Origin: Minisyncoccota bacterium
GTDB lineage: Bacteria > Patescibacteriota > Minisyncoccia > Phycocordibacterales > UBA9973
Assembly: GCA_035491955.1 (NCBI GenBank)
Contig: DATJJU010000003.1
Location: 15,306-79,305, forward strand
Length of the DNA: 64,000 bases
Direction: 5' to 3'
This document shows positions 12,123-63,454 of this stretch, piece after piece. The first letter of the stretch is position 1. Each line of letters opens with the position of its first letter. The notes under the pieces are model-generated. The model was not told the origin of the DNA. It ran no database searches and saw only the letters and a program-made list of their open reading frames with translations. Both the position numbers and the translations under genes were made by a program.

Positions 12123-12156
12123 TGTACAATCTTAGGGAATGTTAATTTTATACGGA

Positions 12157-12201
12157 CCCCCCTCTCTGAGCCTCGGCCGTGGCAATAAGAGAGGGTTTTT
12201 G
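12157..12201 (+). terminator. Second hairpin (8-bp stem, 20-nt structured loop) plus T-run, at the 3' end of the convergent amine oxidase gene
   Basis: ccctctct ... agagaggg followed by TTTTT. Confidence 0.5.
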
Positions 12202-12210
12202 TATTGGCAA

Positions 12211-40718: not shown

Positions 40719-40719
40719 A

Positions 40720-41709: not shown

Positions 41710-41710
41710 A

Positions 41711-45848: not shown

Positions 45849-46143
45849 AAAAAATTCCTCAAAACTTAATAAAATAGTGACTATCTGCACACTACATCTC
45901 CTTTCTTATTTTGTCAACTATCTGCGCGTTGAGAGATCTTTTATAAGCATAAAGCAGAAAAGAGCTACAAAAGATACGAAAAAGCACACTGTTCCAAATG
46001 TATCTTCCCGTGGCCATGGGAGTAAATGCGTGAGAGGTAGTGCCAAGGTCGTTGGATGAAAAACTGCATTCTCTGCAATATAAAACCAGCCTGAAAAACA
46101 AAAGAAAAATAAGGTAAATGTAAAAGCCTTTAGAAATCTCATA

Positions 46144-47430
46144 TTAATTCAACCCACTCGAGAGAAAACCTTGCATTGTTTGATAAGCAGGCTTTTGCGA
46201 ATAATCATTTCGAACAAGACCGAAAAAGTTTTCATTAGTATCAGTTGTAGTTCCCCCATCTCTGTAGGTATACCAGAATAGTGGGCCAGCCCAACTATAT
46301 GATTTATAGAGATTTATGGTATCCGTAACCATCTTTGATTGCTGATCTTCACTAAGATACCACTTTGAATCAGGACCATTTGTTGGAGCGCCGTATTCAG
46401 TGATCCATATCTGCTTTGCGCTATCACCATTCGCATTCATTATACTTCGTACACTAGGGTTACCATTACTCATGCCAGCCCATGCATTTGTAGAATTTGC
46501 AGAAGGAAGCGCAGGAAATGTGTACGGATGATAGCCAACTGCATCAAAGTAATTTTTACCACCGTCCTTATAAACACACTGTAAGAAATCTAGAGGAGCA
46601 ATATTAACATTAGTATTAGCAACCTGAGCCAACCCTCCTGTTATGACATACGCGCCCGGGTCAGCCTTCTTAATAGCTGGGTATACAGCTTTGAGTAGAG
46701 TTGTATATGCTCCACAATCTGACTTGGTAGCCCAAAAATCGTAATCATTTTCTTCATTCCAAATCTCCCAGTAATGCATCCCGTAGCTCTTGTAGCGATT
46801 AACTAAAGCTGTAGCAAATGTCGCAAACTGATTCGGATCATTTGGTGGGCAATGAGCGCCTCCAGTACAACCGGCCGTTCGAGCCCATGGCGGAGTGTTA
46901 ATAATAATACCGAGCCCTACAATACCGTGTTTCTTTAATGAGTTTGCAATTCGATCGTACTTACTCCAATCGTATTGTGAAGCAGAGTTTTGTTGTACAA
47001 AACCCCAATCGATGTCATATCGAACAATTTTCACACCCATAGCTTGCATGCCACTTACTTCTTTTTCAAGATCTGTATCATTCAAACCAGTTAGTTGGCT
47101 ACCCATAGCCATGCCTATACGGTGTGGAAGTGGTGCAACAGGAGTATAAAGACCGCCAAGAGGTTTTGTGGCATCGCTGAGGGTAGCTTTGGTACTAGTA
47201 TCAATAGGATTAGGCGTACTAGTATCGATCGCCAATGGTGTAGTATCAGCAGTAGCTGGGTTTTGTGCAATAGGCGCTACTACCGGCATTATTTTAGAAT
47301 TTTTATATATAAGTGCCAAACGATACCCAAAAAAAATAATGGCAAGAAAACATAAAAAAAAGGTTGTATTACGCGCCGCCCTATTCTTTTGAGATGGAAT
47401 GCCGCCTGATTCTGGCTTCTTTAATAACAT
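46144..47430 (-). CDS. Clan GH-A (TIM-barrel) glycoside hydrolase, PslG/GH39-like, membrane-anchored
   Basis: Acid/base HYWEIWNEEN (NEP-type) and nucleophile IWITEYGAP (ITE-G) motifs; N-terminal signal anchor. Confidence 0.6.
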   Translation of the reverse strand: MLLKKPESGGIPSQKNRAARNTTFFLCFLAIIFFGYRLALIYKNSKIMPVVAPIAQNPATADTTPLAIDTSTPNPIDTSTKATLSDATKPLGGLYTPVAPLPHRIGMAMGSQLTGLNDTDLEKEVSGMQAMGVKIVRYDIDWGFVQQNSASQYDWSKYDRIANSLKKHGIVGLGIIINTPPWARTAGCTGGAHCPPNDPNQFATFATALVNRYKSYGMHYWEIWNEENDYDFWATKSDCGAYTTLLKAVYPAIKKADPGAYVITGGLAQVANTNVNIAPLDFLQCVYKDGGKNYFDAVGYHPYTFPALPSANSTNAWAGMSNGNPSVRSIMNANGDSAKQIWITEYGAPTNGPDSKWYLSEDQQSKMVTDTINLYKSYSWAGPLFWYTYRDGGTTTDTNENFFGLVRNDYSQKPAYQTMQGFLSSGLN

Positions 47431-47489
47431 TACTATCTATGCTACAATATATCGGCAATAAAGTGAAGCATTTGCAATGCTTAACGCCT

Positions 47490-49328
47490 ATGGAAAATCC
47501 TATCACTCGCCTTCTAAAATCTTTTTTTGGCGCGAACCAAATGTCTTTTCGCCAATATATGAAAAACATGGTTGTCCGATTTAAAGAAGACAGCCTTTTT
47601 AAAAACTCGGTATATTTGATAACAAGTACTATCGCAATGTCCTTATTTGGCTTTGCTTTCTGGATCATTACAACTCGCCTTTACACAACAAGCCAAATCG
47701 GGTTTGCAACAGCTCTTATTTCTACCACTATTCTTCTTTCTACTTTCAGCCTGTTCGGATTTAACACAAGCATAGTACGCTTTTTACCGAAATCTGAAAA
47801 TCAGAACAGAACCATAAACACTGCAATTACAGTGGTCACGTTGATTACAATAGTAATTGCTACTGTATACGTACTCAGTATCGGCCGCATTGCTCCTCAA
47901 TTTGATCTTCTAAAAAAAGTGCCGGCATACGGAGTATTTTTTGTATTTTTCATGATACTAGTAAGTATCAACATGCTCACTGACAGCATCTTTATTGCTT
48001 TTCGTGCGGCAAAATATATTTTTATAGAATATATTTTTTTCGGCATCGCAAAAATAAGCCTACCTTTGCTGTTAGTCTCGCTGGGTACATATGGAGTATT
48101 TTTTGCCTATACTGGGTCTGTTATTGTGGCACTAATCGTAACGCTCTATTATCTTGTTAAGAAATTTAGATACTCTCCTAAAGTAGTAATCTCTAAAACT
48201 GAAGTAAAAAATGTAGGACTGTTTGCTGTTGGCAACTATGCAGCAACATTTATCTTGGGGCTTCCCCTTCTTATTCTCCCGACTATTATAGTGACCACTA
48301 TGGGGGCAACTGAATCGGCATATTTTTATATTGCCTCTACAATTGCCGCACTACTATATGGCATTCCTGTAGCAATATGCCAATCGCTTCTCGCAGAAGG
48401 GTCATATGATGAGAGAGCCCTTCGTAGGCTGGTAAAAAGTGCCGCGAAACTGTTGGGTGTTATTATTTTGCTCGGCATCGGCGCCTTTATCGCACTCAGC
48501 AAATTCGTACTGCTTATATTTGGAAGGAATTATGCCGCCAACAGCCGTAACCTGCTCATTGTCATGGCCATTGCTGCTATTTTCGTTGCTATTAACAATT
48601 TAGGAGAAACTGTACTTCGCATTCATCGTAATATAAAAACCCTTGTTTGGATAAGTATTGGTTTTCTTATTGCCACTATTGCTTTTATCTTTTTGCTTAT
48701 CTCGCACGGCATTCTCGGCATGGGATGGGCGCTTCTTTTAGGTCAGGCATTTATGAGTGTTGAACTTGGAGTATATTTTTCATATAGAAAAGTTAAGAAC
48801 GCTTTGCTGTTCTATCTCTTAGGAAGACGCACGTGGAAAGACATAGAATATTTTGACTCTGCATGGTCAGATCGCATTGGACAAATGGCTCAGTACATCC
48901 CTGCAGGTGCAAGTATCTTGGACCTTGGTTGCGGCAAAATGCTTCTCCAGCAATACCTTGAATTAAACCACACGTACTACCCGGTTGATTACAAAGATCG
49001 CGGAGAAGGAACTATTGTCTGTAATTTTAATAGACATCATTTTCCAGATCGATATGCAGATATCGCATTTGTTTCTGGCGTATTAGAGTATGTTGAAAAT
49101 GTTCCTGTATTTATTGCAGATATCGCAAAGCATACAAATCAATGCATCCTTTCCTACTGCTTAATAGAAGATTTTCCGAATATAAGCTTCAGACGAAAAC
49201 AGGCGTGGGTTAATGCCTTTTCTCGGGATGATATCATTTCCCTTTTCTCACAAGCAGGTTTCGTAATTAAAGATGAGAGTAAAACCCCTTCTAATAATTC
49301 TATCTTTAACTTTGTAAAGCAGAATTAA
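47490..49328 (+). CDS. Fusion protein: Wzx-like polysaccharide flippase (MOP superfamily, ~12 TM) with C-terminal class I SAM methyltransferase domain; start uncertain (47364 TTG / 47490 / 47541)
   Basis: About 420 aa of polytopic polysaccharide-biosynthesis-protein-like helices, then SILDLGCGKMLLQQYL motif I and Methyltransf_11-like C-terminus. Confidence 0.55.
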   Translation: MENPITRLLKSFFGANQMSFRQYMKNMVVRFKEDSLFKNSVYLITSTIAMSLFGFAFWIITTRLYTTSQIGFATALISTTILLSTFSLFGFNTSIVRFLPKSENQNRTINTAITVVTLITIVIATVYVLSIGRIAPQFDLLKKVPAYGVFFVFFMILVSINMLTDSIFIAFRAAKYIFIEYIFFGIAKISLPLLLVSLGTYGVFFAYTGSVIVALIVTLYYLVKKFRYSPKVVISKTEVKNVGLFAVGNYAATFILGLPLLILPTIIVTTMGATESAYFYIASTIAALLYGIPVAICQSLLAEGSYDERALRRLVKSAAKLLGVIILLGIGAFIALSKFVLLIFGRNYAANSRNLLIVMAIAAIFVAINNLGETVLRIHRNIKTLVWISIGFLIATIAFIFLLISHGILGMGWALLLGQAFMSVELGVYFSYRKVKNALLFYLLGRRTWKDIEYFDSAWSDRIGQMAQYIPAGASILDLGCGKMLLQQYLELNHTYYPVDYKDRGEGTIVCNFNRHHFPDRYADIAFVSGVLEYVENVPVFIADIAKHTNQCILSYCLIEDFPNISFRRKQAWVNAFSRDDIISLFSQAGFVIKDESKTPSNNSIFNFVKQN

Positions 49329-49329
49329 A

Positions 49330-50526
49330 CTATTTATTTCTGACTAAAGAAGCTACTTTGTAGAGACGACTTCTTGTGTAGTAGTAATCATAAAACCAGA
49401 TCTTTTCTAGGACCTTACGCCCCTGGCCAGTATGAGGATGAGCAAATGATTTGCTAATGCTTTCCTGTAATGCATCCCGCAATTCCTTGTCTGATTCCAT
49501 TTTATTGAGATCCAATAAATTCTCCATTTGAAATGCTGCACCGTCTTCAGTGTACGTTCTTAGATTTTTTACAACCTGTAAATCTATAGACCGAGGAAAT
49601 GTCTTCGATTGTTCTAAAGTTCCTGCAATATGAAGACCGATCATGGTTCTATTACACTTATCACAAAGGCCGCAGTTAAACTTGCCTCTCTTATTTAAAT
49701 AGCACACACGCAAATTTTCTAAAACAATCTGCTCATGAGCAATATACTTTGTCTTCCCTAACCTGTTTGTTTCTGTACCATCATGATGAAAATTGATAAC
49801 CTCGGTACCCCATAAGCCGTCCAGTTGTAGGTGGGTTCCATTGGGGTACTGTTGATCTTTTGTATATGTCGATGCGATATATACGTTATTGATTTCTTTT
49901 CGCAAAGCCAAACCAAGAGCCGCCAAACAACCTCCGTGCGTATAGTCCCACGTCAATATTGGTTCAATGCAATGACGAACATTGCTTTCTACGGTAATAA
50001 GTTCGATACCTTCATGATCTGCAACATTTTCTACAGTGGCCAATGATCTTTCCCATAAATTCTTATTTCTGAGACTAATGTCATAGCCATTTGCCAATAT
50101 GAAATACTGTATCTTTTGAACAGCGGGATTATTTTTGTTTTTAAGATAGGTATAAAAAGAATCAACACCTCCTGAGAAAAATGACGCCGCTGCAGCAGGC
50201 TTATAGGTATCCTTTTTCAGGCTATTAGCTACAATTTTAATTTTCTTTAATCCAATATTCCAAGAAAAGACAAGCTCCATAGCTTCATGTAATCCTTTAT
50301 AAAGCTGTTCGGATATCTCTCCTTCTATAATAAGATTACTGCCCAACTTCATTGAAGGAATCAATAATGCAGCAGCAAAAGGACTCATATCAAGAGCAAT
50401 AAAGTCAACATATTTTTTATCAAACTTGAAATAAATCTTATCGGGCCCGAATGGACGAATAAAACAATCAGCCATCAGAGTTGCGAATTTTGCATCAATC
50501 TTTAATTGTAGATTGCTAATTTTCAT
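49330..50526 (-). CDS. PP-loop ATP pyrophosphatase superfamily protein (QueC/ExsB fold), candidate N-acetyl-sugar amidotransferase (WbuX/WbpG-like)
   Basis: SFFSGGVDSFYTY PP-loop (SGGxDS) and C-terminal CYLNKRGKFNCGLCDKC Cys cluster; ~398 aa; glycan-cluster context. Confidence 0.45.
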   Translation of the reverse strand: MKISNLQLKIDAKFATLMADCFIRPFGPDKIYFKFDKKYVDFIALDMSPFAAALLIPSMKLGSNLIIEGEISEQLYKGLHEAMELVFSWNIGLKKIKIVANSLKKDTYKPAAAASFFSGGVDSFYTYLKNKNNPAVQKIQYFILANGYDISLRNKNLWERSLATVENVADHEGIELITVESNVRHCIEPILTWDYTHGGCLAALGLALRKEINNVYIASTYTKDQQYPNGTHLQLDGLWGTEVINFHHDGTETNRLGKTKYIAHEQIVLENLRVCYLNKRGKFNCGLCDKCNRTMIGLHIAGTLEQSKTFPRSIDLQVVKNLRTYTEDGAAFQMENLLDLNKMESDKELRDALQESISKSFAHPHTGQGRKVLEKIWFYDYYYTRSRLYKVASLVRNK

Positions 50527-51766
50527 AAATATCTTTTACTGTATAAATAGCCTTATTAGCCTCTTCAATATATCCAGGCAAAACTGTATCTAGATGACGC
50601 AGATAGACTGAGCGTTCTCGCGTAAGACGATCGAACATATCAATAAGGTTGTCAGATTCTACTTTCTTAATATTTACTACCCATTGTTCTAGACCGAGGT
50701 CAGCCATGATGCCTCTGGTTTTGTGCTCGTATTCAATAGCCATGCTTGGCACCTTCGAAGTAAGGGCAAATATAACCGAATGGAAGCGGGTACCAACAAG
50801 GTAATCCAGATCGGCATACATTGCTTTTACAATATGGTGATCATATCGCTCCTTTACTACATACGCTTTATCCTTCTCCTCCATATAACTGTAAACACGC
50901 TTACTGCTCTCTCGATCATCATCTGACTGCAGCTCAACAGTAACCTGAGGAATAAAAATAACAGCGGCATTATACGCGGTCACAATATGGTCCGCTAAGG
51001 CTGCTACTGAACGCTCGTAATGTTCCTGAGCTTTTGAATTGAGCCATGCCCGAACAGTAACACCTACAATCATTTTTTCTTCCGGGATGTGGAATTTTTC
51101 ATGAAGATTGACAGAGGTATTGCTTTGGAAAGCAAAACCGCTATCTACAGACAAAGAAACGTTCTTTTTGATACCCCATTTCTTCAACAACTCAAGCGAG
51201 ATATGTTCTCGCACAATAATTCCATTAAGTCGTTTTACTGCAAAACGAGCCATTCGCTCCTGAAAACGATTTCCGAATGGTCCCACAGACTGGGTATAGC
51301 CGACTGTTTTCTTGCCCAAAATATAAGAGAAGACAAAAGGATGAAGAATGAAGAAAAGCCCAAAGGTGCCCATAAGGCCTTCTTTTCCCCTCACATATCC
51401 GCCGCCAACAGAAATAACGATGTCAGCATCTTCATATAGCTTCACGACTTCTTGAATGGATTTCGGTAAAGGAATATTTACTTTAAACCATCTATAGGAA
51501 AATGCCGTGATAAAGGTAAGTGTAGTGATGTATGCAGCATAGATAGCTTGCAGCACACGGTTTTTATACTGCTCTCTAGCATAATACATAAACGCATGCT
51601 TCATTGTTACTCCGTCAAACGTTTCTCCGGGAGCAAGAGTATCGAGCGTCAATATCGTCATATCAGGATTATCAAAACCGCGCTTGATATCCGATATCAA
51701 AACACTGAGGAGCGCAGCGTCTCCTTTATTATCGTTTGAGTAAACATGTGAGATAAGTATTTTCAT
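50516..51766 (-). CDS. Polysaccharide pyruvyl transferase family protein (CsaB/WcaK-like)
   Basis: N-terminal YSNDNKGDAALL (GNxGDxAxL-type) motif; ~416 aa. Confidence 0.65.
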   Translation of the reverse strand: MKILISHVYSNDNKGDAALLSVLISDIKRGFDNPDMTILTLDTLAPGETFDGVTMKHAFMYYAREQYKNRVLQAIYAAYITTLTFITAFSYRWFKVNIPLPKSIQEVVKLYEDADIVISVGGGYVRGKEGLMGTFGLFFILHPFVFSYILGKKTVGYTQSVGPFGNRFQERMARFAVKRLNGIIVREHISLELLKKWGIKKNVSLSVDSGFAFQSNTSVNLHEKFHIPEEKMIVGVTVRAWLNSKAQEHYERSVAALADHIVTAYNAAVIFIPQVTVELQSDDDRESSKRVYSYMEEKDKAYVVKERYDHHIVKAMYADLDYLVGTRFHSVIFALTSKVPSMAIEYEHKTRGIMADLGLEQWVVNIKKVESDNLIDMFDRLTRERSVYLRHLDTVLPGYIEEANKAIYTVKDIYEN

Positions 51767-51772
51767 AAGCTG

Positions 51773-54079
51773 TTAGTGATAAATTTGTGAACCTCCACTG
51801 TTATAAATAAGGTTTTTATTGTTTTTAATAAATTCCATTGGATAATTAAAAGTAATCAGATCATTTTTATATTGGAATGACGCTATGCCAGTCATAATAT
51901 TATTCGTACTAATGTATACATATCCCTTTGGGTCAATTGTTTCTGGAAACACGGCCGTATTTTCAGAGCTCATACCTGCAAAAGATTCTAAGCGAAGATT
52001 CGCTTGAGCATCTGCTTCAACAGGATCGTCGTAATTTCTATCATTCAAAATCCAATGAGCTCCGGCTATTTCCGAATCATGAATATAGAGTCCCTGCATA
52101 GTACTTGGAGGTTGATTCAAGGTAATATGAATCACTCCTCCCGTATAATAATCAACCAGACCCGTTGTTGATAAAAATACTACCGATAGGACACAAGCAA
52201 TTACGAGTTCATTTCGTTTAAAATATTTCGTCAAATTAATAGCCCCTACAATAGCTACAGTACTCAGGAAAAGGAACATCTGAAGATATAATCTGGTGAG
52301 ATTATATTGCTGCTGCAGGTACGGAACCGCAACCATCAATACAATAAGGGCGCACCCGCTGACACTAAGAACAATAAGCTGGTATTCCTTATTGGACCTT
52401 GTTTTAGAGAAACCTTTATATAAAAAGACTAATCCAGCCAAAGGAAATACCGCGATCGCCATAATCTTAGCTGTGTTTGCTATAAAAGCAAGTGCTTTCG
52501 ACAGAACCTCAGGGAGCATTTTTTGAGCGTGTACAGCTGAATCTACGGGGTAGGATGGATAGCTAACAGTCAGAGAATCAGGATAAAATTGATAGTAATA
52601 TGTCTTAATAGCATTCTGTTTTGCTTCCTCTATTGTATCGATCGTATTCTTCGGACCGACAATGTTTGCTACTCCGTTTTTTGATACGCCTGATGAAAAT
52701 GACGGTTGTGAGGATGTAACGATTTCAGATTCTGTAATAGGTGCATTCTCTGTTGCAGGCTTCATAACCGTACCTTTATTTGTTATAAACTCTGTAACCT
52801 TTCCAATAGTTCGAGTGATGGGTACCTGCCATATAAACAGCATTGTTACAGCAAGAACAATAAATACCGGCTTGAACACGGAGGACTGATCTTTAAAAAG
52901 ACTGATCTTTTTTGAAATATATGAAAACAGTGATGCTACTACCAGCAAAATAATTGCCACATAGGCAGTTGAGTAGTGAGACAAAACAATGCCCATAAAA
53001 CTAATTCCCACCAATATATTACGCGTTACTTTTTTCAGATTTTTATCAAGAAGCACTAGCAACAATAGCAAGAAAAAAGGGAAAGCATACTCTTGTCTTA
53101 TAAGCGCTGGCATTTGTTCAAAAAACCATGTTTGCGATAGAAGTAAAAATGCAGAAAGGAAAGCAGAGATGCTAGTGCTTACATATCGCTTTGCAAACAC
53201 ATATACCATAACAGGAGAAAGAGCGAAGAAGATCTGGAACAGGAATTTAAATACATATTCTCCGGAAATATGCGTTAGTTGAACAAGTATGGTTGGCAAT
53301 ATCGTAATACTAAGACATGCATTATAGTCCAGCCCTGCATAATAAGACGCGTGCCACATAAGATGCTGGAGCGTTGTTTGAAACACTTCATACTCCTGAT
53401 TGATATCCCATCCTAATATATGATTGCTTCTGAGAGAGTACATGAGAAGCAAAGAGAGGCTGATTGTGTAGAGCGCTACAATATAAACGCTCTCTTTAAG
53501 ACTTTTATTCCAAAATGCCAGAGCGATAACATAGACAGCTATTGCGGCAATCATTACGACTGTTATCGTATTACTGCCATTATTGTTTAAACGCTCTGCT
53601 CCTAGCCATGCGAGTATGGGAAAAATGAAAGCTATGGCTAAGAATATTCGACTTATCATATTTCCAACTTGGAACTTTACTGTAAGAGTAACGTTCTTCT
53701 GAAAAAAATATATGAAAAGCGAAAGCCCTAAAATAATAACGTCAAAAAATACTACGAGCGGAATTTTTGCCAGAGGGTGATGAATACCAAATAAAGGTAA
53801 TAGAAAATTGGCTATCACCCCCCCTAAGAGTACGAAGCCGAAACCTGTAAGAAGAGCATAGACAATGTATTGAGCAGTATTATCAGAGGGTATATTCAGT
53901 ATCACTGACAACAATAAACCGGTTAAGCCGAAAAGGCCCACTAGAACAATCGGAACTGTAATCCATAAAGGTACAGAGGAAACAAGCACTACGACAGTCA
54001 TGATCGCGATCAAATAAATCGCTACAAACAGAAGCCTCTTATTTGTCAGTATTAGATTATTCCCTCCTCTCTCTTCCAT
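51773..54079 (-). CDS. Large polytopic membrane protein, paralogue A (GT-C-fold / DUF2206 / YfhO-like architecture; family unassigned)
   Basis: About 16 hydrophobic helices, ~100-aa central loop, ~110-aa C-terminal soluble domain; shares GWDINQEYEVF, ACLSITILPT, LSHYSTAYVA and C-terminal NNKNLIYNSGGSQIY motifs with 54096-56471. Confidence 0.5.
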   Translation of the reverse strand: MEERGGNNLILTNKRLLFVAIYLIAIMTVVVLVSSVPLWITVPIVLVGLFGLTGLLLSVILNIPSDNTAQYIVYALLTGFGFVLLGGVIANFLLPLFGIHHPLAKIPLVVFFDVIILGLSLFIYFFQKNVTLTVKFQVGNMISRIFLAIAFIFPILAWLGAERLNNNGSNTITVVMIAAIAVYVIALAFWNKSLKESVYIVALYTISLSLLLMYSLRSNHILGWDINQEYEVFQTTLQHLMWHASYYAGLDYNACLSITILPTILVQLTHISGEYVFKFLFQIFFALSPVMVYVFAKRYVSTSISAFLSAFLLLSQTWFFEQMPALIRQEYAFPFFLLLLLVLLDKNLKKVTRNILVGISFMGIVLSHYSTAYVAIILLVVASLFSYISKKISLFKDQSSVFKPVFIVLAVTMLFIWQVPITRTIGKVTEFITNKGTVMKPATENAPITESEIVTSSQPSFSSGVSKNGVANIVGPKNTIDTIEEAKQNAIKTYYYQFYPDSLTVSYPSYPVDSAVHAQKMLPEVLSKALAFIANTAKIMAIAVFPLAGLVFLYKGFSKTRSNKEYQLIVLSVSGCALIVLMVAVPYLQQQYNLTRLYLQMFLFLSTVAIVGAINLTKYFKRNELVIACVLSVVFLSTTGLVDYYTGGVIHITLNQPPSTMQGLYIHDSEIAGAHWILNDRNYDDPVEADAQANLRLESFAGMSSENTAVFPETIDPKGYVYISTNNIMTGIASFQYKNDLITFNYPMEFIKNNKNLIYNSGGSQIYH

Positions 54080-54095
54080 ATATCACTCTTAGATG

Positions 54096-56471: not shown

Positions 56472-56472
56472 A

Positions 56473-58803
56473 TTATGGGTATATAGACAACAAGGCTTTT
56501 CCTACAACATCCCAATCGTAATGAGTAAGAACGAATTCCCTGCCCGCTGCAGACATTTCATCATATTGCATATTTTTATACAAAATGTCAAGTATAGTGT
56601 CGGCAAAAGCTTCTGGTGCGTCCGCTATTGCGATACCGTTATTTTTCTCTATTCCTTCTGCTCCTTTTGATGCAGAAACTACAGGCAAGCCAGCAGCCAT
56701 GTACGTTAATATCTTAAGTCTGGTGCCGGAGCCGTAGCGAACAGGACAAATACCAATTGCTGACTCAGCAAGATAAGGACGGATATCTTCCACAAAGCCT
56801 GTGCCTTTTATGGAGTCGTCTTGAACACCTTCTTTTTTAAGCCACTCAGGTGTTGCGCCAATAATAGTAGTTGATATTGCGGAATCTTTTTTCTTTAAAT
56901 GGGGGTAAATTTCATGTATGTAAAATTTCACTGCATCAGCATTCGGAGGATATTTTACCCCTCCGATAAACAGTATCTTTTTATTGTTATCCTTCTTTTT
57001 TACTGGAACAAACTCTTTGCAGTCGACTCCATTAGGAACGATGAACACATTCTTATTAATTTGTTTAAAATAGTCTGCATCATTATTTGAACATGCAATA
57101 ACAATATCGGCTTGCTTCGTAGCTTCTATTTCAACTTTCTGCAAATGAGGTACAAGCCACTTCCCTACTATTCTTTTTGGTGATGAAAACAGTTCCAATG
57201 ACTGTTCAAATAATGCTCCTTCAATATTATGAGTATCAAGAACTATTTTCACGCCTTGTTTCTTAAGCCAAGGAATATATTTTCGGATACAGTAATATCC
57301 GCTGATCTGTTCAATATGGACTACATCAGGTAATTTTTCCTGACAAGCGGCATAAAAAATTTCTCCCACCCCGCTTATTCTGAAATTCTCTATTGCGGGT
57401 TGCACACGCTTGAACAAAATAGCCTTTAAAAAAGTTAGTGGTGTTAATTTCTTTTTTTGTATAGGATGAACAGTGATATTCGGCTCTCGTTTTAAAGCAT
57501 CCACAGCTTCGCTATTATCGGCAATACAGAAAAGATCGATAGTAGTATGACTTTTTTTAGAAAGCTGTTTAAGCAAATGGAAGTTTCTAATTTCAGCTCC
57601 TCCACTGTTTCGAGGAGTGTTAGTAGATACAATATAAATTGTTTTTTCCTTGACATCTTTTTTTACCGCAGAAGATATGCCCAAGAAAGCTTCAGTTTCT
57701 GCTGCTAATATAGACCAATTATATTTTTCTTTAGCGTATACCTGAGCATTTTTTGATTTATCATATATATCTGCATCACCCAACGCATAGAGAATTGTCT
57801 TTTCGAGGTCAGTACGATTGTTTGACTGGGCAATATATCCAATTCTTCCATGATCCACAAAAGAAGGCAGATCGCCGATATTGCTGACAAGAGGTACGAC
57901 CCCTCGAGCCATGTATTGAGAGACTTTCATATTGCTTGCCGCTAATACTGTCCGCTCATTCGGCATATAACTATAGCCAATATCGCCGGGAGAAAAAGTA
58001 TCCTTCACATCAGTGAGGGCAAGCCATCCTGTAAATATAGTATTCTTGGTAATTCCAAGAATACCGGCTTTTTCTTTAAAATAATTAAGATATGTTCCGT
58101 TGCCCATTATTAAAATTTTTATGTCTGGGTATTGCGCGATGACATTAGGAAGAACATCGAACAATGGTTCAAGAATATTTTTTCTATTAATAGCACCCAT
58201 GAATAAGATTCTTTTACTATGCATTTTTTCTTTCACGGGAGTAAACCACTCATCACTGACGCCGTTCGGTAATATATGCACAGGCTTTTTAGGAAAGGAT
58301 TCTTTATACATGCTGTAAAGAAAACTTGAAGCAGCTATAATCTTATCAGCATAATATGCCGATATTTTTTCTGACCATGCCACAAGTACGCGCTGATACC
58401 ATGGATGACCTTCGATTTTCATTACTTCACTACCCAAATCATCCATATCTAATACTACGGATGTGCCGTAAAAAAGCTTACCGAGCAAGCCTACAGCGCT
58501 TATCGGCGTAGGCTTGTAGATATAAATAAGGTCTGAGCGTTTTCGTAGTATTTTCCACGAAGCACTAATAAGATAAGGAATGAGATTTATTAGAGGGTTT
58601 CGTGTTTTAAATTGAAAAGGTTGATAGATCTTTACTCCATTAAGTGTCGTGATTTTTTCATATGAAAAATTATTATACTTGTCGGCACTAGGAACTATAA
58701 TGGTCACATCATGACCATTCTTGTGCAGCTCTGTTGCAAGTTGCACAATGCGATAACTAAAATTGCTGCGGATACTCCCCGATCCTAAAAAAGTAATCTT
58801 CAT
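56473..58803 (-). CDS. Tandem double-domain GT4 (group 1) glycosyltransferase
   Basis: Two GT-B modules, each ending in an E-x7-E-like region (EKYNWSILAAE; second copy after aa ~400); 776 aa. Confidence 0.7.
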   Translation of the reverse strand: MKITFLGSGSIRSNFSYRIVQLATELHKNGHDVTIIVPSADKYNNFSYEKITTLNGVKIYQPFQFKTRNPLINLIPYLISASWKILRKRSDLIYIYKPTPISAVGLLGKLFYGTSVVLDMDDLGSEVMKIEGHPWYQRVLVAWSEKISAYYADKIIAASSFLYSMYKESFPKKPVHILPNGVSDEWFTPVKEKMHSKRILFMGAINRKNILEPLFDVLPNVIAQYPDIKILIMGNGTYLNYFKEKAGILGITKNTIFTGWLALTDVKDTFSPGDIGYSYMPNERTVLAASNMKVSQYMARGVVPLVSNIGDLPSFVDHGRIGYIAQSNNRTDLEKTILYALGDADIYDKSKNAQVYAKEKYNWSILAAETEAFLGISSAVKKDVKEKTIYIVSTNTPRNSGGAEIRNFHLLKQLSKKSHTTIDLFCIADNSEAVDALKREPNITVHPIQKKKLTPLTFLKAILFKRVQPAIENFRISGVGEIFYAACQEKLPDVVHIEQISGYYCIRKYIPWLKKQGVKIVLDTHNIEGALFEQSLELFSSPKRIVGKWLVPHLQKVEIEATKQADIVIACSNNDADYFKQINKNVFIVPNGVDCKEFVPVKKKDNNKKILFIGGVKYPPNADAVKFYIHEIYPHLKKKDSAISTTIIGATPEWLKKEGVQDDSIKGTGFVEDIRPYLAESAIGICPVRYGSGTRLKILTYMAAGLPVVSASKGAEGIEKNNGIAIADAPEAFADTILDILYKNMQYDEMSAAGREFVLTHYDWDVVGKALLSIYP

Positions 58804-58807
58804 AACA

Positions 58808-59962
58808 TTATTTAATAAGAGAATTATATATTTCTATATACTTTCCAGTCTGTATCTCCCAGCTGAACCCTTGAGCTTTTAACGACCCCGCATCTCCTAA
58901 TGCCTGAGCAAAAGCATGATCACTTATTATTTTTTCTATAGCCTCAGCTAGAGCTTGTGGATTTTTCGGTTCAACAATCAGACCTGTAACACCGTTATCG
59001 ATGACCTGAGGAGTACCGCCAATATTAGTACCAATAATCGGACGACCTGATGCCATAGCTTCGACCAGTGACACACTAAACGCCTCTGAGTCAGAGGTAG
59101 ATGGCAAAACCATTACATTCATTCTCTCAAACGCCTTCACAAGCTCTGCCCCATATTGAGGACCAGGAGTAATAAAATTGTCTTGTATATTTAAATCTTT
59201 TGCCTGTTGCGTATAGAGACCGAGTGCATCGCCTCCTCCGACGATCTCTAGTGTCGCGGAAGGTCTTTTTTTAATCACAATAGCCATTGCCTTAATAAGA
59301 TATTCGATACCTTTCCACATTGAAGAAAGCTCTACTCTGCCAACAAAAGCTACACGTTCATTATTCGGCACCGCAGTCTTTTTAAATCGTTCCAAATCCA
59401 CTCCGGTAGGAATAAAAGAGACCTTGTTTATAAATTGAGGAAATACGACAGGAATAAAGTTTCGAGCCACTGCCACAATATGATCAGCGCGCTGAAGGAG
59501 CTTTTTCAAAAAATATAATTCGTAGACCCCTATAATAAGATCAAGAATGAAATTTCCCTTACGCATACTGCCAGAGTGATATGTCACGACCAAAGGAATA
59601 TGCTTTTTATGAGCTACTGCAGCAGCAACATCCGCCATAAATGGCACGGGTGAATGCGTGTGAACAAGACTAGGCTTTTCTTCATCAAAAATCTTTGTGA
59701 TCATTTTTGACCAAGCAAAATTAATAGGCGTATTCGATAAACGAAACGCGATAGGAAGACGGTGCACTGTCATGCCGTCAATCATATCTTTGCGATAGCC
59801 TTTTCCATCATAGTTACTGGAGATAATGCTGACCGTATAGTTTCCGCTCTCTTGCAGCATCTTTGCAGTGGTATAAGCAATAGTTTCGAGACCGCCCACT
59901 TTTGGGTAAAAATATGATGCAACCACTGTAACATGAGGTTTTTTTATTATTGATTCATTCAT
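58808..59962 (-). CDS. GT4 (group 1) glycosyltransferase
   Basis: N-terminal HVTVVASYFYPKVGGLE and C-terminal SDSEAFSVSLVEAMASGRPII GT4 motifs. Confidence 0.8.
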   Translation of the reverse strand: MNESIIKKPHVTVVASYFYPKVGGLETIAYTTAKMLQESGNYTVSIISSNYDGKGYRKDMIDGMTVHRLPIAFRLSNTPINFAWSKMITKIFDEEKPSLVHTHSPVPFMADVAAAVAHKKHIPLVVTYHSGSMRKGNFILDLIIGVYELYFLKKLLQRADHIVAVARNFIPVVFPQFINKVSFIPTGVDLERFKKTAVPNNERVAFVGRVELSSMWKGIEYLIKAMAIVIKKRPSATLEIVGGGDALGLYTQQAKDLNIQDNFITPGPQYGAELVKAFERMNVMVLPSTSDSEAFSVSLVEAMASGRPIIGTNIGGTPQVIDNGVTGLIVEPKNPQALAEAIEKIISDHAFAQALGDAGSLKAQGFSWEIQTGKYIEIYNSLIK

Positions 59963-62226
59963 ACATATAACTCTTCTAATTTGCTAATAGTTGCCTCCCA
60001 ACTGTATGGTTCTGAAAAATGCTCGTAATACTCGCCAGGTTTTCTTGATGCCAATACTTTTTTAATTGTATCAGCAAGCGCCTCGGCATTTAAATCAGAT
60101 ATCATGCCATTATCATTATTGATAATAAGATCTTTTGCTGCATTATGCTTGGCGTTGACTGTTACCACCGGCAAGCCTATGGCGTTGGCTTCGATTACAG
60201 TAATTCCGAATCCTTCACGATCAGAAGGAAGCACAAACACCTTAGAGGCTTTCATTAATGCATACACGTCTTCTTGCTTATCTAAGAAACCAGTAAAAGT
60301 TACCGCATCACTGATATTCAAACTGTCTGACATTTTTTCTAGATATTCTTTTTGAGGACCATCACCCACAATATACGCCTTTATGGCTGGAGAATCTTTT
60401 TTTATCTCCGCTATAGCATGAAGCAAGGTGCCCACATTCTTATGAGGTAATAATCTTCCGGCAAAAATAATATCTGACTGAGTACTCGGTAGTATTTTTT
60501 TCATAAAAGAAAGATCTAACGCATTTGGAATAGTTACAACACGATTTTTTATACCCAAAATATTTTTTAACTCCGCAGTAGTATGATCTGATACTGAAAT
60601 TATACTATCAGGCAACGTGGCGCTGATTTTTTCAATAAAATACGCTATGGAACCGAAAGTAAAACCAAGATATTCCCTCCAGTATTTCTTTCCCCATACT
60701 TCATGCCAAGTAGCTATCATTTTCTTTCTCTTAAGCATACAGACAAATTTTGTAACAAGTAGCACCGTATGAGGAATATGATCAACATCAAGAATATCGA
60801 ATGATTTTGTAAGAAGCTTAAATGCGCTCAATGAGAAAAATAGTGCCTGCTTTAAAGATCTTCGATTGCCTATATATAAAGGATAATAAGAGCTTATCGC
60901 AGATAATGTAACTCCCTGATCTTGAATGGTATATGGGCCCTTCCACCACTTCATACAATAGATCGTGACATCATAGCCTTCTTTCGCCAGTTGTATCGTC
61001 AGATCATATAATCTTTTCTCTTTTCCTCCTTTGTTAAATTGGTACACGGCGTCAGAAACAAACGCCAATTTCTTAGGGGGCTTTTGGCCAGCATCTGAAT
61101 ACACGCGCTCTAGTTTTGAGATAATAGCATTCCAATTAAAATATTCATTAACATACTGTTTTGAGTATTCTCCCATTTTCTGCAGGCGTGTTTCATCGAA
61201 AACAATTTCTCTTATAGCGCCTTGAACGCTTTCATCTGTGGGATTCTTAATAAGATACATCATCTCCCTATCGAGTTTATAGTCCTTATACCCTTCATCG
61301 TCAGATGTAATAATAGGTAAACCGCATGCCATAGCCTCTTGAATAGCAAGAGGAAACCCTTCACTCTCCGATGGAAGAATAAAAATATCGGCAGCTTGAT
61401 ATACTTCCGCCATTTCCGAAGGCTGTATTTTTCCTAGGAAAACCAGATTATCGCTACTCTCCTGAATAGGAGTAGCTCCGGCAAACGCAATTTGATATTC
61501 TGAACTCTCAGCAGATAAAACTTTGGTAAAGCCCTTTTTGGGTACAAATCTTCCCACAAAGAGGATAACCTTTTTATTACTATCCAAGCCAAATTTTTTA
61601 CGCAATATCTTTTTCTCTTCTACTGAAACAGGCTTAAAAAGTTTTTCATTTACGCCATTGATAAGCATAACGATCTTTTTATCGGAAACTCCTCGTCTTA
61701 TTAAGAATTTTTTTACCGACTGGTTATACACCATGATACGATTGCTAAATTTAAAAATTATTTTACCCGTTGTGACATATACGAATTTCTCAATTAGTAC
61801 AACAATGCGACTCGGGTGCTTGATGAGTGCAATATGTTCAGTTAACACTAATGGCTTTTTAAACAACCGAGCGAATAGTGCGGCAAAAAACGAACTCATA
61901 TAAAACGCATCGTGAATATGCACGACATCGGCTTTCTTTACTTCGCGTCTTAGTACTGGCAGTAATCGAAGGGAGAAAATCGGGAATGGTGCTCCCCATT
62001 TTTCTGAGAAGTTCAGTGCTTTGATTCTGATGACACGTATTCCATCAACAATAGCACTTTTCTCATCTGCATTAGTCTCACTAGTTACTACAGTAACCGT
62101 ATACCCCGAAGCAACCAAGCGCTTCGCTTGGTTATATGCCACCATTCCTACACCAGTTACATGAGGAGGAAAATGATGAGTGACTATAAGAATGCTCTTT
62201 TTAGACTCATTCATATTGCTACTCAT
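59959..62226 (-). CDS. Tandem double-domain GT4 (group 1) glycosyltransferase
   Basis: Two GT-B modules with ESEGFPLAIQEAMACGLPII and DREGFGITVIEANAIGLPVV. Confidence 0.7.
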   Translation of the reverse strand: MSSNMNESKKSILIVTHHFPPHVTGVGMVAYNQAKRLVASGYTVTVVTSETNADEKSAIVDGIRVIRIKALNFSEKWGAPFPIFSLRLLPVLRREVKKADVVHIHDAFYMSSFFAALFARLFKKPLVLTEHIALIKHPSRIVVLIEKFVYVTTGKIIFKFSNRIMVYNQSVKKFLIRRGVSDKKIVMLINGVNEKLFKPVSVEEKKILRKKFGLDSNKKVILFVGRFVPKKGFTKVLSAESSEYQIAFAGATPIQESSDNLVFLGKIQPSEMAEVYQAADIFILPSESEGFPLAIQEAMACGLPIITSDDEGYKDYKLDREMMYLIKNPTDESVQGAIREIVFDETRLQKMGEYSKQYVNEYFNWNAIISKLERVYSDAGQKPPKKLAFVSDAVYQFNKGGKEKRLYDLTIQLAKEGYDVTIYCMKWWKGPYTIQDQGVTLSAISSYYPLYIGNRRSLKQALFFSLSAFKLLTKSFDILDVDHIPHTVLLVTKFVCMLKRKKMIATWHEVWGKKYWREYLGFTFGSIAYFIEKISATLPDSIISVSDHTTAELKNILGIKNRVVTIPNALDLSFMKKILPSTQSDIIFAGRLLPHKNVGTLLHAIAEIKKDSPAIKAYIVGDGPQKEYLEKMSDSLNISDAVTFTGFLDKQEDVYALMKASKVFVLPSDREGFGITVIEANAIGLPVVTVNAKHNAAKDLIINNDNGMISDLNAEALADTIKKVLASRKPGEYYEHFSEPYSWEATISKLEELYV

Positions 62227-63003
62227 TTATTTATTATTGAGTATTGGCTGCTGGCGCAATCGAGGTTGCTGCTGAAATTGAGGTCTCGGTTTCCAGAATA
62301 GGTTCTTGAAAAACATCCAGAAAATCCGAATGCCGTCTTTGAAAGGATTGAGGTTTGTTTCTCCGGCGCGAGCACTGTAACTAATAGGAACAGAGCAAAT
62401 TTCTAATCCAAGGTGAGCCATTTTTGTTACCATTTCCATTTCAATAGCAAAGCCTTGCGATTTTAGGTGAGGTCGAAGTTTTTCTAAAGCACTAAATTCC
62501 CATGCAAAGTAACCAGTCAAAACATCAGTGACATGAACACCGTAAAATGTACGTACTAATCGTGAAAAAATACGATTACCAATACGATTAGTCATCTTCA
62601 TAGAACCCATGAGAATCTTGCCTCCCAATCGTGAGCCAATAACGACATTGCTAAACTTTGAACGAAGAGGTTCGAGAAGGCGGAGAATCTCACTAGAGTG
62701 ATAAGTATTATCCCCATCAAGCATTACAACGTAGTCACACCAATCAGAATTGATTACGTACTTGAAGCCGGTTCTGATAGCATTCCCTTTACCTTTCTTT
62801 GGTTCGTGCAAAACTGTTGCACCTAATGAACGAGCGATTTCTCCTGTTCGATCTGTAGAATTATTATCAATAACAACTATTTCAGTTTCAAAACCGCTGT
62901 GACGCAAGGCTTGTTTTGGAAAACTATGAATAACGTCTGCGATGCCACATTCTTCATTGTAGCAAGGGATAACAATAATTACTTTGTGTGGTTTTATAGT
63001 CAT
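62227..63003 (-). CDS. GT2 glycosyltransferase, Dpm1/polyprenyl-phosphate sugar synthase-like (start at MTIKPHK)
   Basis: VIIVIPCYNEE, VVIDNNSTD and MLDGDNTY (DxD) motifs; ~258 aa. Confidence 0.8.
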   Translation of the reverse strand: MTIKPHKVIIVIPCYNEECGIADVIHSFPKQALRHSGFETEIVVIDNNSTDRTGEIARSLGATVLHEPKKGKGNAIRTGFKYVINSDWCDYVVMLDGDNTYHSSEILRLLEPLRSKFSNVVIGSRLGGKILMGSMKMTNRIGNRIFSRLVRTFYGVHVTDVLTGYFAWEFSALEKLRPHLKSQGFAIEMEMVTKMAHLGLEICSVPISYSARAGETNLNPFKDGIRIFWMFFKNLFWKPRPQFQQQPRLRQQPILNNK

Positions 63004-63007
63004 AGTA

Positions 63008-63454
63008 TTAATTGTTATTAGGGATAAGAAAATCAATACTCTGATTGAGATTTTTCAAAGTAACTTGAACCATTCCTTCTTCGTCTGTAAGAGTTGAAGT
63101 ATGCGAAACAATAACTGTTCTTGTTTCATCATCTGCGAGAGTCACAGTTCCTTTAAGAATGGAGAGGGTTTGACCATTTTTATATACAAAATTTACAGTA
63201 TAGGGATATGTAGTTTGTATTCCTTCAACATTATGAATATTAAAAGAAAATGTTATTTTTTGTCCCTTACTTATTGATTTAGGAAGATTCTCTGAATTAT
63301 TAAAATAGAGTTCGGTATAGGGTTCTAACTTGGGAGTAAAATTAAGACGATTGAGAGCATCTGATATTTGAGTATTAAATACCAAGATAGCAACTGCAAG
63401 CGCAACAATTACTACTGCTGGGATAAGTATTTTTTTGTGTACTGGATTCTCCAT
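63008..63454 (-). CDS. Hypothetical membrane-anchored protein at the head of the glycan operon
   Basis: N-terminal TM anchor; ~148 aa. Confidence 0.4.
   Translation of the reverse strand: MENPVHKKILIPAVVIVALAVAILVFNTQISDALNRLNFTPKLEPYTELYFNNSENLPKSISKGQKITFSFNIHNVEGIQTTYPYTVNFVYKNGQTLSILKGTVTLADDETRTVIVSHTSTLTDEEGMVQVTLKNLNQSIDFLIPNNN

Follow-up and report, generated by a model that had tools for sequence, protein, structure and literature searches.

A segment of about 17 kb (46144-63454) in the MAG of an uncultured Patescibacteria (CPR) bacterium (Candidatus Paceibacterota) is a real sugar-polymer assembly operon, beyond what chance would produce, as its gene order is kept in a relative and its core in 80 loci from other genomes. 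Far from being peculiar to this genome, the gene set is a decorated form of a module that is conserved and widespread. We tentatively propose, rating this reading a little below an even chance, that the product of the cluster is a decorated glycan of the cell envelope, made via polyprenyl phosphate without a phosphoglycosyltransferase (PGT) by a route centred on membrane proteins of the DUF2206 family.

Layout and conservation of the operon

The open reading frame list of the window (the whole stretch of 64,000 nucleotides that was analysed), combined with Pfam and NCBIfam scans, placed eleven tightly packed genes in the segment. Every gene named in a previous sequence-only reading was reproduced at its coordinates, and the eleventh, absent from that list, encodes a 148-aa membrane protein whose ATG is position 63454. 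From there down to 49330, nine genes are separated by gaps of -11 to +16 nt, and therefore form a single operon. The Wzx-methyltransferase gene is convergent with the 3' end of the operon and divergent from the glycoside hydrolase gene. Gene order is identical in a 73%-identical relative, in which the flanking synteny is also kept. The earlier description of the region as an island, in the sense of a recent acquisition, was not borne out, since its G+C content is only slightly lower than that of the remaining window (0.387 versus 0.424) and its flanks are conserved in the relative. The accompanying view that the cluster serves surface-glycan biosynthesis is supported.

Across the 80 loci, the order of the core module is conserved: small membrane protein, GT2, GT4s, DUF2206, Wzx and glycoside hydrolase. 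Its carriers include many CPR bacteria, Chloroflexota, Actinomycetota and DPANN archaea.

The GT2 enzyme and the absence of a linked phosphoglycosyltransferase

The first gene of the operon (63008..63454, minus strand) encodes the 148-aa protein, which consists of a single N-terminal transmembrane (TM) helix and an extracytoplasmic domain of about 110 aa. It is DUF1616-like, with a weak Pfam match (26.1 bits, under the 31.6 cutoff); the score of its Acidothermaceae orthologue is over the cutoff (35.4 bits). Such a protein is present in 51 of the 80 related loci, adjacent to the GT2 gene in 37 of 50 and upstream of it in 42 of 50, and here its gene ends 4 nt ahead of the GT2 start. It may act as a partner to the GT2 or the GT-C enzymes. 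A role as GT2 activator is possible by analogy only, because the protein lies mostly outside the cell and is not homologous to GacJ/WpsB.

The GT2 (62227..63003, minus strand; 258 aa; Pfam Glycos_transf_2, 8.5e-25) has a GT-A fold and no TM helix. Its best NCBIfam match is AglJ (TIGR04182; 1.7e-56, 191.8 bits, below the equivalog cutoff of 325), with dolichyl-phosphate hexose transferase and PpgS next, and in the PDB it matched the Dol-P-Man synthase (DPMS) of P. furiosus (5mlz, 1.2e-11) and ArnC (9hwj, 1.7e-4). These top matches are all polyprenyl-phosphate glycosyltransferases, and the protein is accordingly classed by similarity as a putative polyprenyl-phosphate hexose synthase (AglJ/DPMS/ArnC-like), whose proposed product is a polyprenyl-P-hexose primer or donor. 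Homologues occur in 65 of the 80 loci, often at 50-67% identity, and lie on the same strand as and upstream of DUF2206 in 38 of 40. The GT2 is the most conserved DUF2206 partner across the loci.

The sequence-only reading had reported no PGT, Wzy, Wzz or ABC-2 exporter inside the cluster. Pfam and NCBIfam scans confirmed this and counted one flippase. The search beyond 64 kb that it had recommended gave the same result: on a contig with identical proteins, none of the four was encoded in the roughly 9 kb past the window end, where the only genes were MacB/YknX-type efflux genes and two for hypothetical proteins. PGTs were likewise absent from the inspected clusters of the relative and of loci L081, L023/L022 and L006, and from the recurrent neighbour families of the 80 loci, as judged by Pfam scan or match to window proteins. 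No Wzy_C/O-antigen-polymerase domain or PCP/Wzz protein was found across the inspected loci. The missing PGT would be explained by the type of the GT2, because a polyprenyl-phosphate hexose synthase fits monophosphate-primed pathways. A PGT could also lie in another part of the genome, since the analysis covered 64 kb plus about 9 kb.

Three cytoplasmic GT4 proteins are encoded next on the minus strand. The first (59959..62214; 751-755 aa, 751 in the JGI assembly gene call) has no TM segments and carries two full Glyco_transf_4 plus Glycos_transf_1 modules, the second (58808..59962; 384 aa) has a single module (Glycos_transf_1, 5.7e-36; Glyco_transf_4, 5.7e-25), and their homologues are found in 71 and 70 of the 80 loci, respectively. 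The third (56473..58803; 776 aa) is again a double-module protein, with TIGR03087 (stp1) as its best NCBIfam match (7.7e-50, under the cutoff).

The DUF2206 membrane proteins

Two large membrane proteins follow on the minus strand. Paralogue b (54096..56471; 791 aa, about 16 TM segments) matched Pfam DUF2206 at 3e-20 (72.9 bits; cutoff 35.6) and PMT_2 weakly; paralogue a (51773..54079; 768 aa) is a second GT-C copy. They are 30% identical (E 3e-75), which bears out their earlier description as paralogous polytopic proteins. The proteins are about 780 aa long; an additional TM bundle lies at the N-terminus and a globular domain at the C-terminus. An invariant acidic/basic motif (R217, D225, E229) is located in the loop following a TM helix, and the loop motif R..G.DI..EY is kept in paralogue b. 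A confident structure model has the GT-C fold, with AftA as the best structural match and high scores also for Pmt, ArnT, ALG12 and PIG-M; the oligosaccharyltransferases (OSTs) AglB, STT3 and PglB scored near these monosaccharide transferases. As modelled, DUF2206 is an uncharacterised family of membrane glycosyltransferases with the GT-C fold, which supports the earlier suggestion that the paralogues act as transferase and/or polymerase.

DUF2206 is single-copy in 76 of the 80 loci, two copies being confined to the lineage of the window, and the proteins of single-copy loci mostly score higher against paralogue b than against a. We propose that b is the widely conserved type, which transfers the flipped lipid-linked glycan to the final acceptor, and, from distribution alone, that the lineage-specific a is a polymerase or a second transferase. 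In several genomes the N-terminus of DUF2206 is fused to one to three GT4 modules or to GT2, and these fusions tie cytoplasmic assembly to the GT-C step.

Decorating enzymes, flippase and hydrolase

The pyruvyl transferase reported previously is real (50516..51766, minus strand; 416 aa; PS_pyruv_trans, 1.6e-29, 104 bits). It is CsaB/WcaK-like (6.1e-35 and 7e-31 in NCBIfam, each under its own equivalog cutoff) and accessory to the module, occurring in 12 of the 80 loci. Its gene overlaps by 11 nt that of a cytoplasmic PP-loop ATP pyrophosphatase (49330..50526, minus strand; 398 aa) with an SGGVDS PP-loop. The core of this protein spans approximately residues 98-300, flanked by an extra N-terminal beta domain and a C-terminal helical domain, and it had zero sequence-level matches among Pfam and NCBIfam models. 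It is QueC-like, from an uncharacterised family. The two enzymes occurred together in 4 of 4 loci, against a background of 12/80 (hypergeometric p ~3e-4); among metagenome loci with the PP-loop protein, 24 of 43 have a pyruvyl transferase and 19 show none within the sequence available. An ATP-dependent modification of a glycan carboxylate is proposed as its function.

The only plus-strand gene (47439..49328; 629 aa) encodes a MOP-family Wzx flippase of about 12 TM segments (Polysacc_synt, 4.2e-13) with a C-terminal SAM-dependent methyltransferase (Methyltransf_23, 5.7e-11). The frame is open from 47364, and the length of 629 aa follows the JGI gene call. That assembly holds both domains in one gene, so the fusion claimed before is genuine, although the relative encodes them separately (434 and 187 aa). 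Wzx is present in 61 of the 80 loci and the methyltransferase in none.

The label PslG-like proved apt for the last protein (46144..47430, minus strand; 428 aa), a clan GH-A, GH39/GH5-like glycoside hydrolase (Cellulase, 1.4e-10; Glyco_hydro_39, 4.8e-06) that matches PDB PslG (4zn2) at E 2.4e-22. It contains the motifs WNEEN and ITEYG, and with its single N-terminal TM segment it is predicted to be membrane-anchored and extracytoplasmic. Hydrolases of this kind are found in 43 loci of the 80, downstream of DUF2206 in 41 of them.

Proposed pathway and alternatives

In the pathway that we favour, the TM-less GT2, which the small membrane protein may hold in place or activate, would work on the cytoplasmic side and load polyprenyl monophosphate with a hexose taken from a nucleotide sugar, and the five GT4 catalytic modules would extend this primer to an oligosaccharide. 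The pyruvyl transferase would attach pyruvate as a ketal; its translationally coupled neighbour, the QueC-like enzyme, would, more speculatively, adenylate a carboxylate, most likely of pyruvate or a uronic acid, and convert it, for example to an amide; and the methyltransferase domain would O-methylate a sugar. After flipping by the Wzx domain, DUF2206b would hand the lipid-linked glycan to an acceptor outside the membrane (a protein, a lipid or a different polymer of the wall), DUF2206a would polymerise repeat units or make a second linkage, and the PslG-like hydrolase would trim or release the polymer.

A polyprenyl-P-hexose-making GT2 is equally needed by a side-chain (three/four-component) system, as in GacIJKL, GtrABC, CsbB/YfhO or mycobacterial Ppm1 with GT-C mannosyltransferases. 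Here Wzx would flip a polyprenyl-P-monosaccharide, the DUF2206 proteins would add single sugars to a backbone outside the cell, and the GT4s would build that backbone on a carrier that an unlinked PGT had primed. The GT2 is indeed nearest to makers of monosaccharide donors (DPMS, ArnC), the structural matches from AftA to PIG-M all take polyprenyl-P-monosaccharide donors, the weak PMT_2 match agrees, and GacK and AglR are precedents for a Wzx-family flippase in such systems. However, the backbone would require a flippase or ABC exporter of its own as well as a polymerase or a ligase, and such proteins are neither encoded in the cluster nor recurrent in the 80 loci; several genomes join GT4 modules directly to DUF2206, and OSTs score almost as high as monosaccharide transferases. 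We consider this alternative unlikely, though likelier than the two that follow.

A classical Wzx/Wzy-dependent, Psl-like exopolysaccharide, with an unlinked PGT priming polyprenyl-PP, DUF2206 replacing Wzy, and the GT2 as an ordinary repeat-unit transferase or branch-donor synthase, seems rather improbable. The gene set does resemble psl, EPS repeat units typically involve a pyruvyl transferase, and unlinked PGTs are common. Against this, every inspected locus lacks a PGT, PCP/Wzz and a Wzy_C/O-antigen-polymerase domain, the GT2, DUF2206's most conserved companion, belongs specifically to the type with polyprenyl phosphate as acceptor, and DUF2206 resembles GT-C enzymes of the OST/PMT/AftA type. 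Least probable is protein glycosylation common to CPR and DPANN, with DUF2206 as a new OST type modifying surface proteins (S-layer, pilins): the AglJ match, the parallels with Haloferax Agl including the methyltransferase, and the DPANN loci, in which an exosortase/archaeosortase-like protein is fused to Wzx or encoded beside it, speak for it, but neither an STT3 Pfam match nor a WWDxG-like motif was found in the DUF2206 protein or the family consensus, the PslG-like endoglycosidase and the CE4 deacetylases of related loci point to a polysaccharide, and the loci share no obvious conserved target protein.

Comparison with known systems

The PP-loop protein differs from QueC and Cap9 in its extra N-terminal (~97 aa) and C-terminal (~100 aa) domains and in its context, which is polysaccharide synthesis, often beside pyruvyl transferases, and not queuosine or CBASS genes. 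The mycobacterial GT-C enzymes AftA, AftB, AftD, Emb and PimE differ from DUF2206 in sequence (9% identity), domain layout and donor pathway, which is unrelated. With Pseudomonas aeruginosa psl, the cluster shares a GT2, several GT4s, a Wzx-like flippase and a PslG-type hydrolase. The psl locus encodes the PGT PslA, the Wzy-like PslJ and the PCP/OPX pair PslE/PslD, whose counterparts are absent from the cluster, where GT-C takes the place of Wzy.

[quoted passage not shown] The cluster has an AglJ-type GT2, Wzx, GT-C and a methyltransferase as well, and its module also occurs in archaea (DPANN). In contrast to Agl, it has no STT3/AglB-family OST, its extenders are GT4 instead of GT2, it resides in a bacterium that has peptidoglycan-related genes, and the module conserves a glycoside hydrolase.

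The sequence-only reading had taken the cluster as a complete pathway and could name no characterised counterpart. The exact gene set was indeed not found in the literature searched, but monophosphate-primed pathways with Wzx and GT-C had been overlooked. In L. lactis Wps and S. pyogenes GacIJKL, a GT-A enzyme and a small membrane protein make C55-P-sugar, with neither PGT nor Wzy needed; the product is lengthened by cytoplasmic GTs, exported by a Wzx-family flippase and passed to the acceptor by one GT-C, and a second GT-C, in some strains only, acts as polymerase (PMC9574508). The cluster has genes for each of these parts, from which a like mechanism is inferred, and WpsJ (always present) versus WpsI (polymer-making strains only) is mirrored by the single and the second copy of DUF2206. 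It differs in that its GT-C is DUF2206, with no detectable sequence relation, its small partner is single-pass and DUF1616-like whereas GacJ/WpsB has three TM segments, its GT2 is nearer to archaeal AglJ/DPMS than to any bacterial NCBIfam family, and no rhamnan (rgp/rml) locus is nearby; it adds the PslG-like hydrolase, pyruvyl transferase, QueC-like enzyme and methyltransferase. The conserved DUF2206 module apparently does without the initiating enzyme that is usual for such pathways in CPR bacteria, Chloroflexota, Actinomycetota and DPANN archaea.

Results

The ORF listing and the Pfam and NCBIfam scans recovered all ten genes that the sequence-only reading had assigned to a surface-glycan island at 46144-63454, and revealed an eleventh (63008-63454, minus strand), whose 148-aa product spans the membrane once and matches DUF1616 weakly; the later ATG of the 157-aa ORF is the true start. 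Between 63454 and 49330, nine genes follow one another with spacings of -11 to +16 nt, and hence constitute a single operon. The Wzx-methyltransferase gene, on the plus strand, is convergent with the operon end and divergent from the glycoside hydrolase (GH) gene. No phosphoglycosyltransferase (PGT), Wzy, Wzz or ABC-2 exporter was detected by the Pfam and NCBIfam scans within the cluster, as the same reading had claimed. Its proposal to look for a PGT past the window end was followed in the gene table of a JGI contig that encodes identical proteins. No PGT is listed in the next ~9 kb, where the genes are two for hypothetical proteins and some for MacB/YknX-type efflux.

Two of the operon genes encode members of a domain family of unknown function, DUF2206 (PF09971). 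Paralogues a (768 aa, 51773-54079, minus strand) and b (791 aa, 54096-56471, minus strand) scored 78.3 and 72.9 bits against a gathering threshold of 35.6, and share 30% identity. When the family profile was run against 1.84 billion cluster representatives, it retrieved 5,370 members, of which 3,107 had E<=1e-30. Sequence and family-profile searches against the PDB gave noise only and reached no solved structure. In the fold comparison, DUF2206 matched AftA (15.2), A. fulgidus AglB (13.5), Pmt4 (12.0), ALG12 (11.7), STT3B (11.4), PIG-M (11.2), PglB (11.0), and ArnT (10.7), and it displays the GT-C architecture with a polytopic membrane core. R217, D225, and E229 (GWDINxEY), located in a loop after a transmembrane (TM) helix, are invariant in 37 homologues including both paralogues; K278, R328, and H368 are further invariant residues in the family. 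The loop is a candidate counterpart of the modified DxD of GT-C enzymes, in which acidic residues lie in the first extracytoplasmic loop. We predict from the fold that DUF2206 is a GT-C glycosyltransferase, with putative use of a lipid-phosphate-linked donor. It is like the STT3/AglB/PglB oligosaccharyltransferases at the fold level only. Since the paralogues have no match to the STT3 Pfam domain, and no WWDxG motif is visible in their sequences or in the family consensus, they are not classical oligosaccharyltransferases. In some genomes the DUF2206 N-terminus is fused to a GT2 or to one to three complete GT4 modules, giving giant proteins of 1980 aa (P0334), 1783 aa (P0345), 1524 aa (P0337), 1173 aa (P0346), and about 1100 aa (P0023 and P0034).

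The best NCBIfam matches of the GT2 (62227-63003, minus strand), which has no TM helix, were AglJ (1.7e-56), dolichyl-phosphate hexose transferase, PpgS, and ArnC, all under their equivalog cutoffs; the top match, AglJ (TIGR04182), gave 191.8 bits and did not reach the curated cutoff of 325 bits. In the PDB, it matched the Pyrococcus Dol-P-Man synthase (1.2e-11) and also ArnC. Judged by these matches, the GT2 is predicted to be of the polyprenyl-phosphate glycosyltransferase type, with a putative charging activity. The small membrane protein encoded upstream, in close translational coupling with the GT2, combines a single TM segment with a DUF1616-like ectodomain. It is not homologous to the GacJ/WpsB activator, which has three TM segments, and resembles it in position only. 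The GT2 is 49-55% identical to its counterparts in DPANN archaea (loci L022, L023, L018, and L056) and 54-55% identical to those in Chloroflexota (L030, L037, L065, and L066), whereas DUF2206 is only about 28-32% identical in the same comparison. This suggests either inter-domain transfer or a very strong constraint on the GT2.

Searching the species genomes of GTDB with an alignment of DUF2206 gave 80 loci. Tallied from record titles, they comprise about 34 from Patescibacteria, about 14 from Actinomycetota (including the cultured strains Acidothermaceae B102, with its cluster at about 2,012,900-2,026,000 of AP028633.1, and Pseudonocardia asaccharolytica DSM 44247), 8 from Chloroflexota, 7 from DPANN or unclassified archaea, and 2 from Atribacterota. 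When the window proteins were searched against them by tblastn, GT4 was found in 70-71 loci, the AglJ-like GT2 in 65 (often at 50-67% identity), Wzx in 61, the DUF1616-like protein in 51, the PslG-like GH in 43, the pyruvyl transferase in 12, the PP-loop protein in 4, and the methyltransferase in none. Gene order was largely retained. The small protein adjoins the GT2 in 37 of 50 loci and lies upstream of it in 42 of 50; in 38 of 40, the GT2 precedes DUF2206 on the same strand. Wzx lies downstream in 54 of 61 loci, in 37 on the opposite strand, and the GH is downstream in 41 of 43. Only 4 of the 80 loci carry two DUF2206 genes. All ORFs of the 80 loci were clustered, and the recurrent families of unknown identity were then scanned with Pfam. 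Among these were CE4 deacetylases, additional GH5/39 enzymes, an epimerase, exosortases, and fusions of Wzx, but no PGT family, and individually inspected clusters lacked a PGT as well. Six loci labelled 'uncultured Gammaproteobacteria' or 'Flavobacteriaceae' (L004, L012, L015, L029, L034, and L057) carry the module and are probably mis-binned or mislabelled Patescibacteria contigs; the module proteins of L004 are up to 53-63% identical to those of Paceibacterota.

Among the remaining enzymes, the hydrolase aligned with PslG over residues 113-424 (E 2.4e-22). It has an N-terminal anchor, and its WNEEN and ITEYG motifs, bearing the acid/base and nucleophile Glu residues, are intact, so that a PslG-like enzyme of clan GH-A is predicted. 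The three GT4 proteins contain five catalytic modules. The pyruvyl transferase (50516-51766, minus strand) is a solid member of PF04230 (104.1 bits, cutoff 25.3), and did not reach the CsaB or WcaK equivalog cutoffs. The Wzx-methyltransferase fusion is a single 629-aa gene in a JGI assembly. In a relative with 73% identity in the PP-loop protein, Wzx (434 aa) and methyltransferase (187 aa) are encoded separately, and the rest of the gene order is identical to that of the window cluster. In Nanoarchaeota modules, Wzx carries an N-terminal exosortase/archaeosortase-like domain (PF09721; 734-736 aa; L022 17381-19591 and L023 13759-15963, both minus strand), and L048 has a separate exosortase gene (12146-13081, minus strand). 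The association hints at a link between the glycan and sortase-processed surface proteins. In six loci (L046 1513-3594, minus strand, and five others), Wzx is fused to an APH-type phosphotransferase domain, the scanned member being from a Saccharimonadales MAG. Wzx thus seems to be a recurrent fusion partner of glycan-modifying enzymes.

The PP-loop protein (398 aa, 49330-50526, minus strand), whose gene overlaps that of the pyruvyl transferase by 11 nt, is 100% identical to VL576_01005 from a 'Candidatus Paceibacterota bacterium' MAG, which places the host among the CPR/Patescibacteria, and belongs to a family of hundreds of members at 45-75% identity. It matched no Pfam or NCBIfam model, those of QueC included, and sequence searches of the PDB with the protein and its family profile gave noise only. 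The motifs FSGGVDSFYT and RVCY.N..NCG.CDKC.RTM are invariant, and the protein has both the SGGxDS motif and the C-terminal four-Cys cluster of QueC. It differs from the QueC family in lacking sequence membership and in being encoded among polysaccharide genes, not queuosine genes. The possible amidination put forward earlier fared less well, as a WbpG/LfnA-type N-acetyl sugar amidotransferase was rejected for want of either a family-model match or a close fold match. All four DUF2206 loci with a PP-loop gene have a pyruvyl transferase, against the background of 12 in 80. By HMM, a pyruvyl-transferase domain was present in 24 of 43 metagenome loci (>=5 kb) with a PP-loop family member, directly adjacent in 9; other neighbours were GT2, GT4, CE4 deacetylases, and a PMT-like GT-C protein. 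QueC chemistry involves carboxylate adenylation. By analogy, the PP-loop protein probably adenylates a carboxylate, the likely target being a pyruvate ketal or a uronic acid.

The PP-loop family extends far beyond the DUF2206 module, with >500 metagenome relatives mostly in other polysaccharide clusters (L082-L161). In L089, L090, L092, L093, L098, and L099, it adjoins a 694-798-aa protein (GT2 plus sigma-70 region 2 in the L099 scan), and in five of these six a nearby protein of ~700-1200 aa matches the pyruvyl-transferase profile.

The G+C content of the cluster (0.387) is mildly below that of the rest of the window (0.424). A recently acquired island was rejected on account of this small dip and of flanks that are syntenic in a close relative. 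The promoter and terminator scan gave signals no higher than shuffle expectation and was uninformative. The vicinity of the cluster contains no tRNA gene or Rfam element, and the whole window has one tRNA-Ile, at 4816, and no further RNA family. Since PADLOC gave zero defence-system matches, the 'GT4-conflict' Pfam overlaps reflect generic GT4 similarity. The ORF directly upstream of the operon (63555-63998, minus strand) runs past the window end and is 292 aa on the JGI contig, with no Pfam match; it probably lies outside the conserved module, because a homologue occurs in only 1 of the 80 loci. The downstream PG_binding_1, CAP, and DUF218 genes were rejected as module parts, being syntenic in the close relative and present in none of the 80 distant loci; the CAP/PG_binding_1 pair directly follows the cluster. 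Two CAP/SCP-domain and two PG_binding_1 proteins, one of the latter with a LamG/ConA-like domain, are scattered over the window (8596-9504, plus strand; 43539-44570, 15232-16707, and 44637-45890, minus strand). Such proteins are secreted or wall-associated and typical of CPR genomes. Adjacent minus-strand ORFs of 211 and 383 aa (40083-41871 and 38599-40080), both with HlyD/membrane-fusion domains and next to an MFS transporter gene, represent either one membrane-fusion gene that is split or frameshifted, or an adaptor made of two parts. The window is bacterial, since it encodes ribosomal protein L25/Ctc, a peptide-chain release factor, an SLT transglycosylase, and a CtpA-type protease. The release-factor gene (3752-4687, plus strand; PCRF and RF-1 domains) encodes only 311 aa, with the match starting at profile position 36, and the 190 nt before it show no CTTTGAC frameshift site of the RF2 type.

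Discussion

The locus first noticed as an island is real, and is one decorated version of a DUF2206 module that is conserved across phyla. In the most economical reading, which we favour, the GT2 would charge polyprenyl monophosphate, the GT4s would build the glycan on it, the lone Wzx would flip the lipid-linked product, and DUF2206 would transfer or polymerise the glycan outside the membrane. We favour it because the cluster encodes a single flippase but neither Wzy nor a PGT, because a polyprenyl-phosphate-type GT2 stands at the head of the operon and precedes DUF2206 in nearly all the loci compared, and because GT4 modules are fused to the GT-C protein in some genomes. The main rival is a side-chain donor system, in which the GT2 would supply a monosaccharide donor for the addition of single sugars by DUF2206. 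The nearest structural neighbours, AftA, Pmt, and ArnT, speak for it, but it would leave the backbone with neither exporter nor polymerase, and is therefore ranked second. Protein glycosylation is possible, as is a Psl-like pathway of the Wzy type whose PGT is unlinked, although the cluster has just Wzx and the PslG-like GH in common with psl, and neither the window cluster and its flanks nor the inspected related loci yielded a PGT, Wzy polymerase, or PCP/Wzz.

The searched literature yielded nothing functional on DUF2206, PF09971, or DUF1616 and no description of a cluster with this gene set, in line with what the first reading had stated; nor did it or the searched databases yield a characterisation of the DUF2206 module, the DUF2206 GT-C family, or the QueC-like enzyme. 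CPR/Patescibacteria and DPANN archaea are tiny epibionts that attach to hosts via their surfaces, and to our knowledge almost nothing is known of their envelope glycans. For such a glycan, the module is a concrete candidate pathway with wide conservation, and a domain of unknown function gains a fold and a probable role. The presence of the module in cultured Acidothermaceae B102 and P. asaccharolytica would make genetic tests feasible. The QueC-like enzymes, with their link to pyruvyl transferases, may account for a sugar modification that is so far undescribed. A more far-reaching reading, which we consider rather unlikely, would have the small membrane protein, AglJ-like GT2, GT4s, Wzx, and DUF2206 oligosaccharide transferase/polymerase form a self-contained, previously unrecognised PGT-free pathway exchanged among DPANN, CPR, Chloroflexota, and Actinomycetota, joined in this genome by a new QueC-like modification of the pyruvate-ketal (or uronate) carboxylate to an amide or nitrile.

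The sequence-only reading described the cluster correctly and was broadly right in its interpretation, but it overlooked two points, namely a known type of explanation for the missing PGT and Wzy, and the place of the locus within a wider conserved module. In the Wps system of L. lactis, reviewed together with the S. pyogenes GacIJKL system, C55-P-GlcNAc from WpsA/B is extended by WpsC-F, flipped by the Wzx-type WpsG, and transferred by the GT-C protein WpsJ, while a second GT-C protein, WpsI, polymerises in some strains only (PMC9574508). The proposed DUF2206 pathway would follow the same logic. The occurrence of one versus two DUF2206 genes mirrors WpsJ versus WpsI, and this distribution suggests that paralogue b may be the transferase and paralogue a the polymerase. 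As in GacIJKL and WpsABG-J type systems, a Wzx-family flippase and a GT-C protein are encoded together here, and the logic of the proposed pathway is shared with the Agl pathway of Haloferax (PMC3871713).
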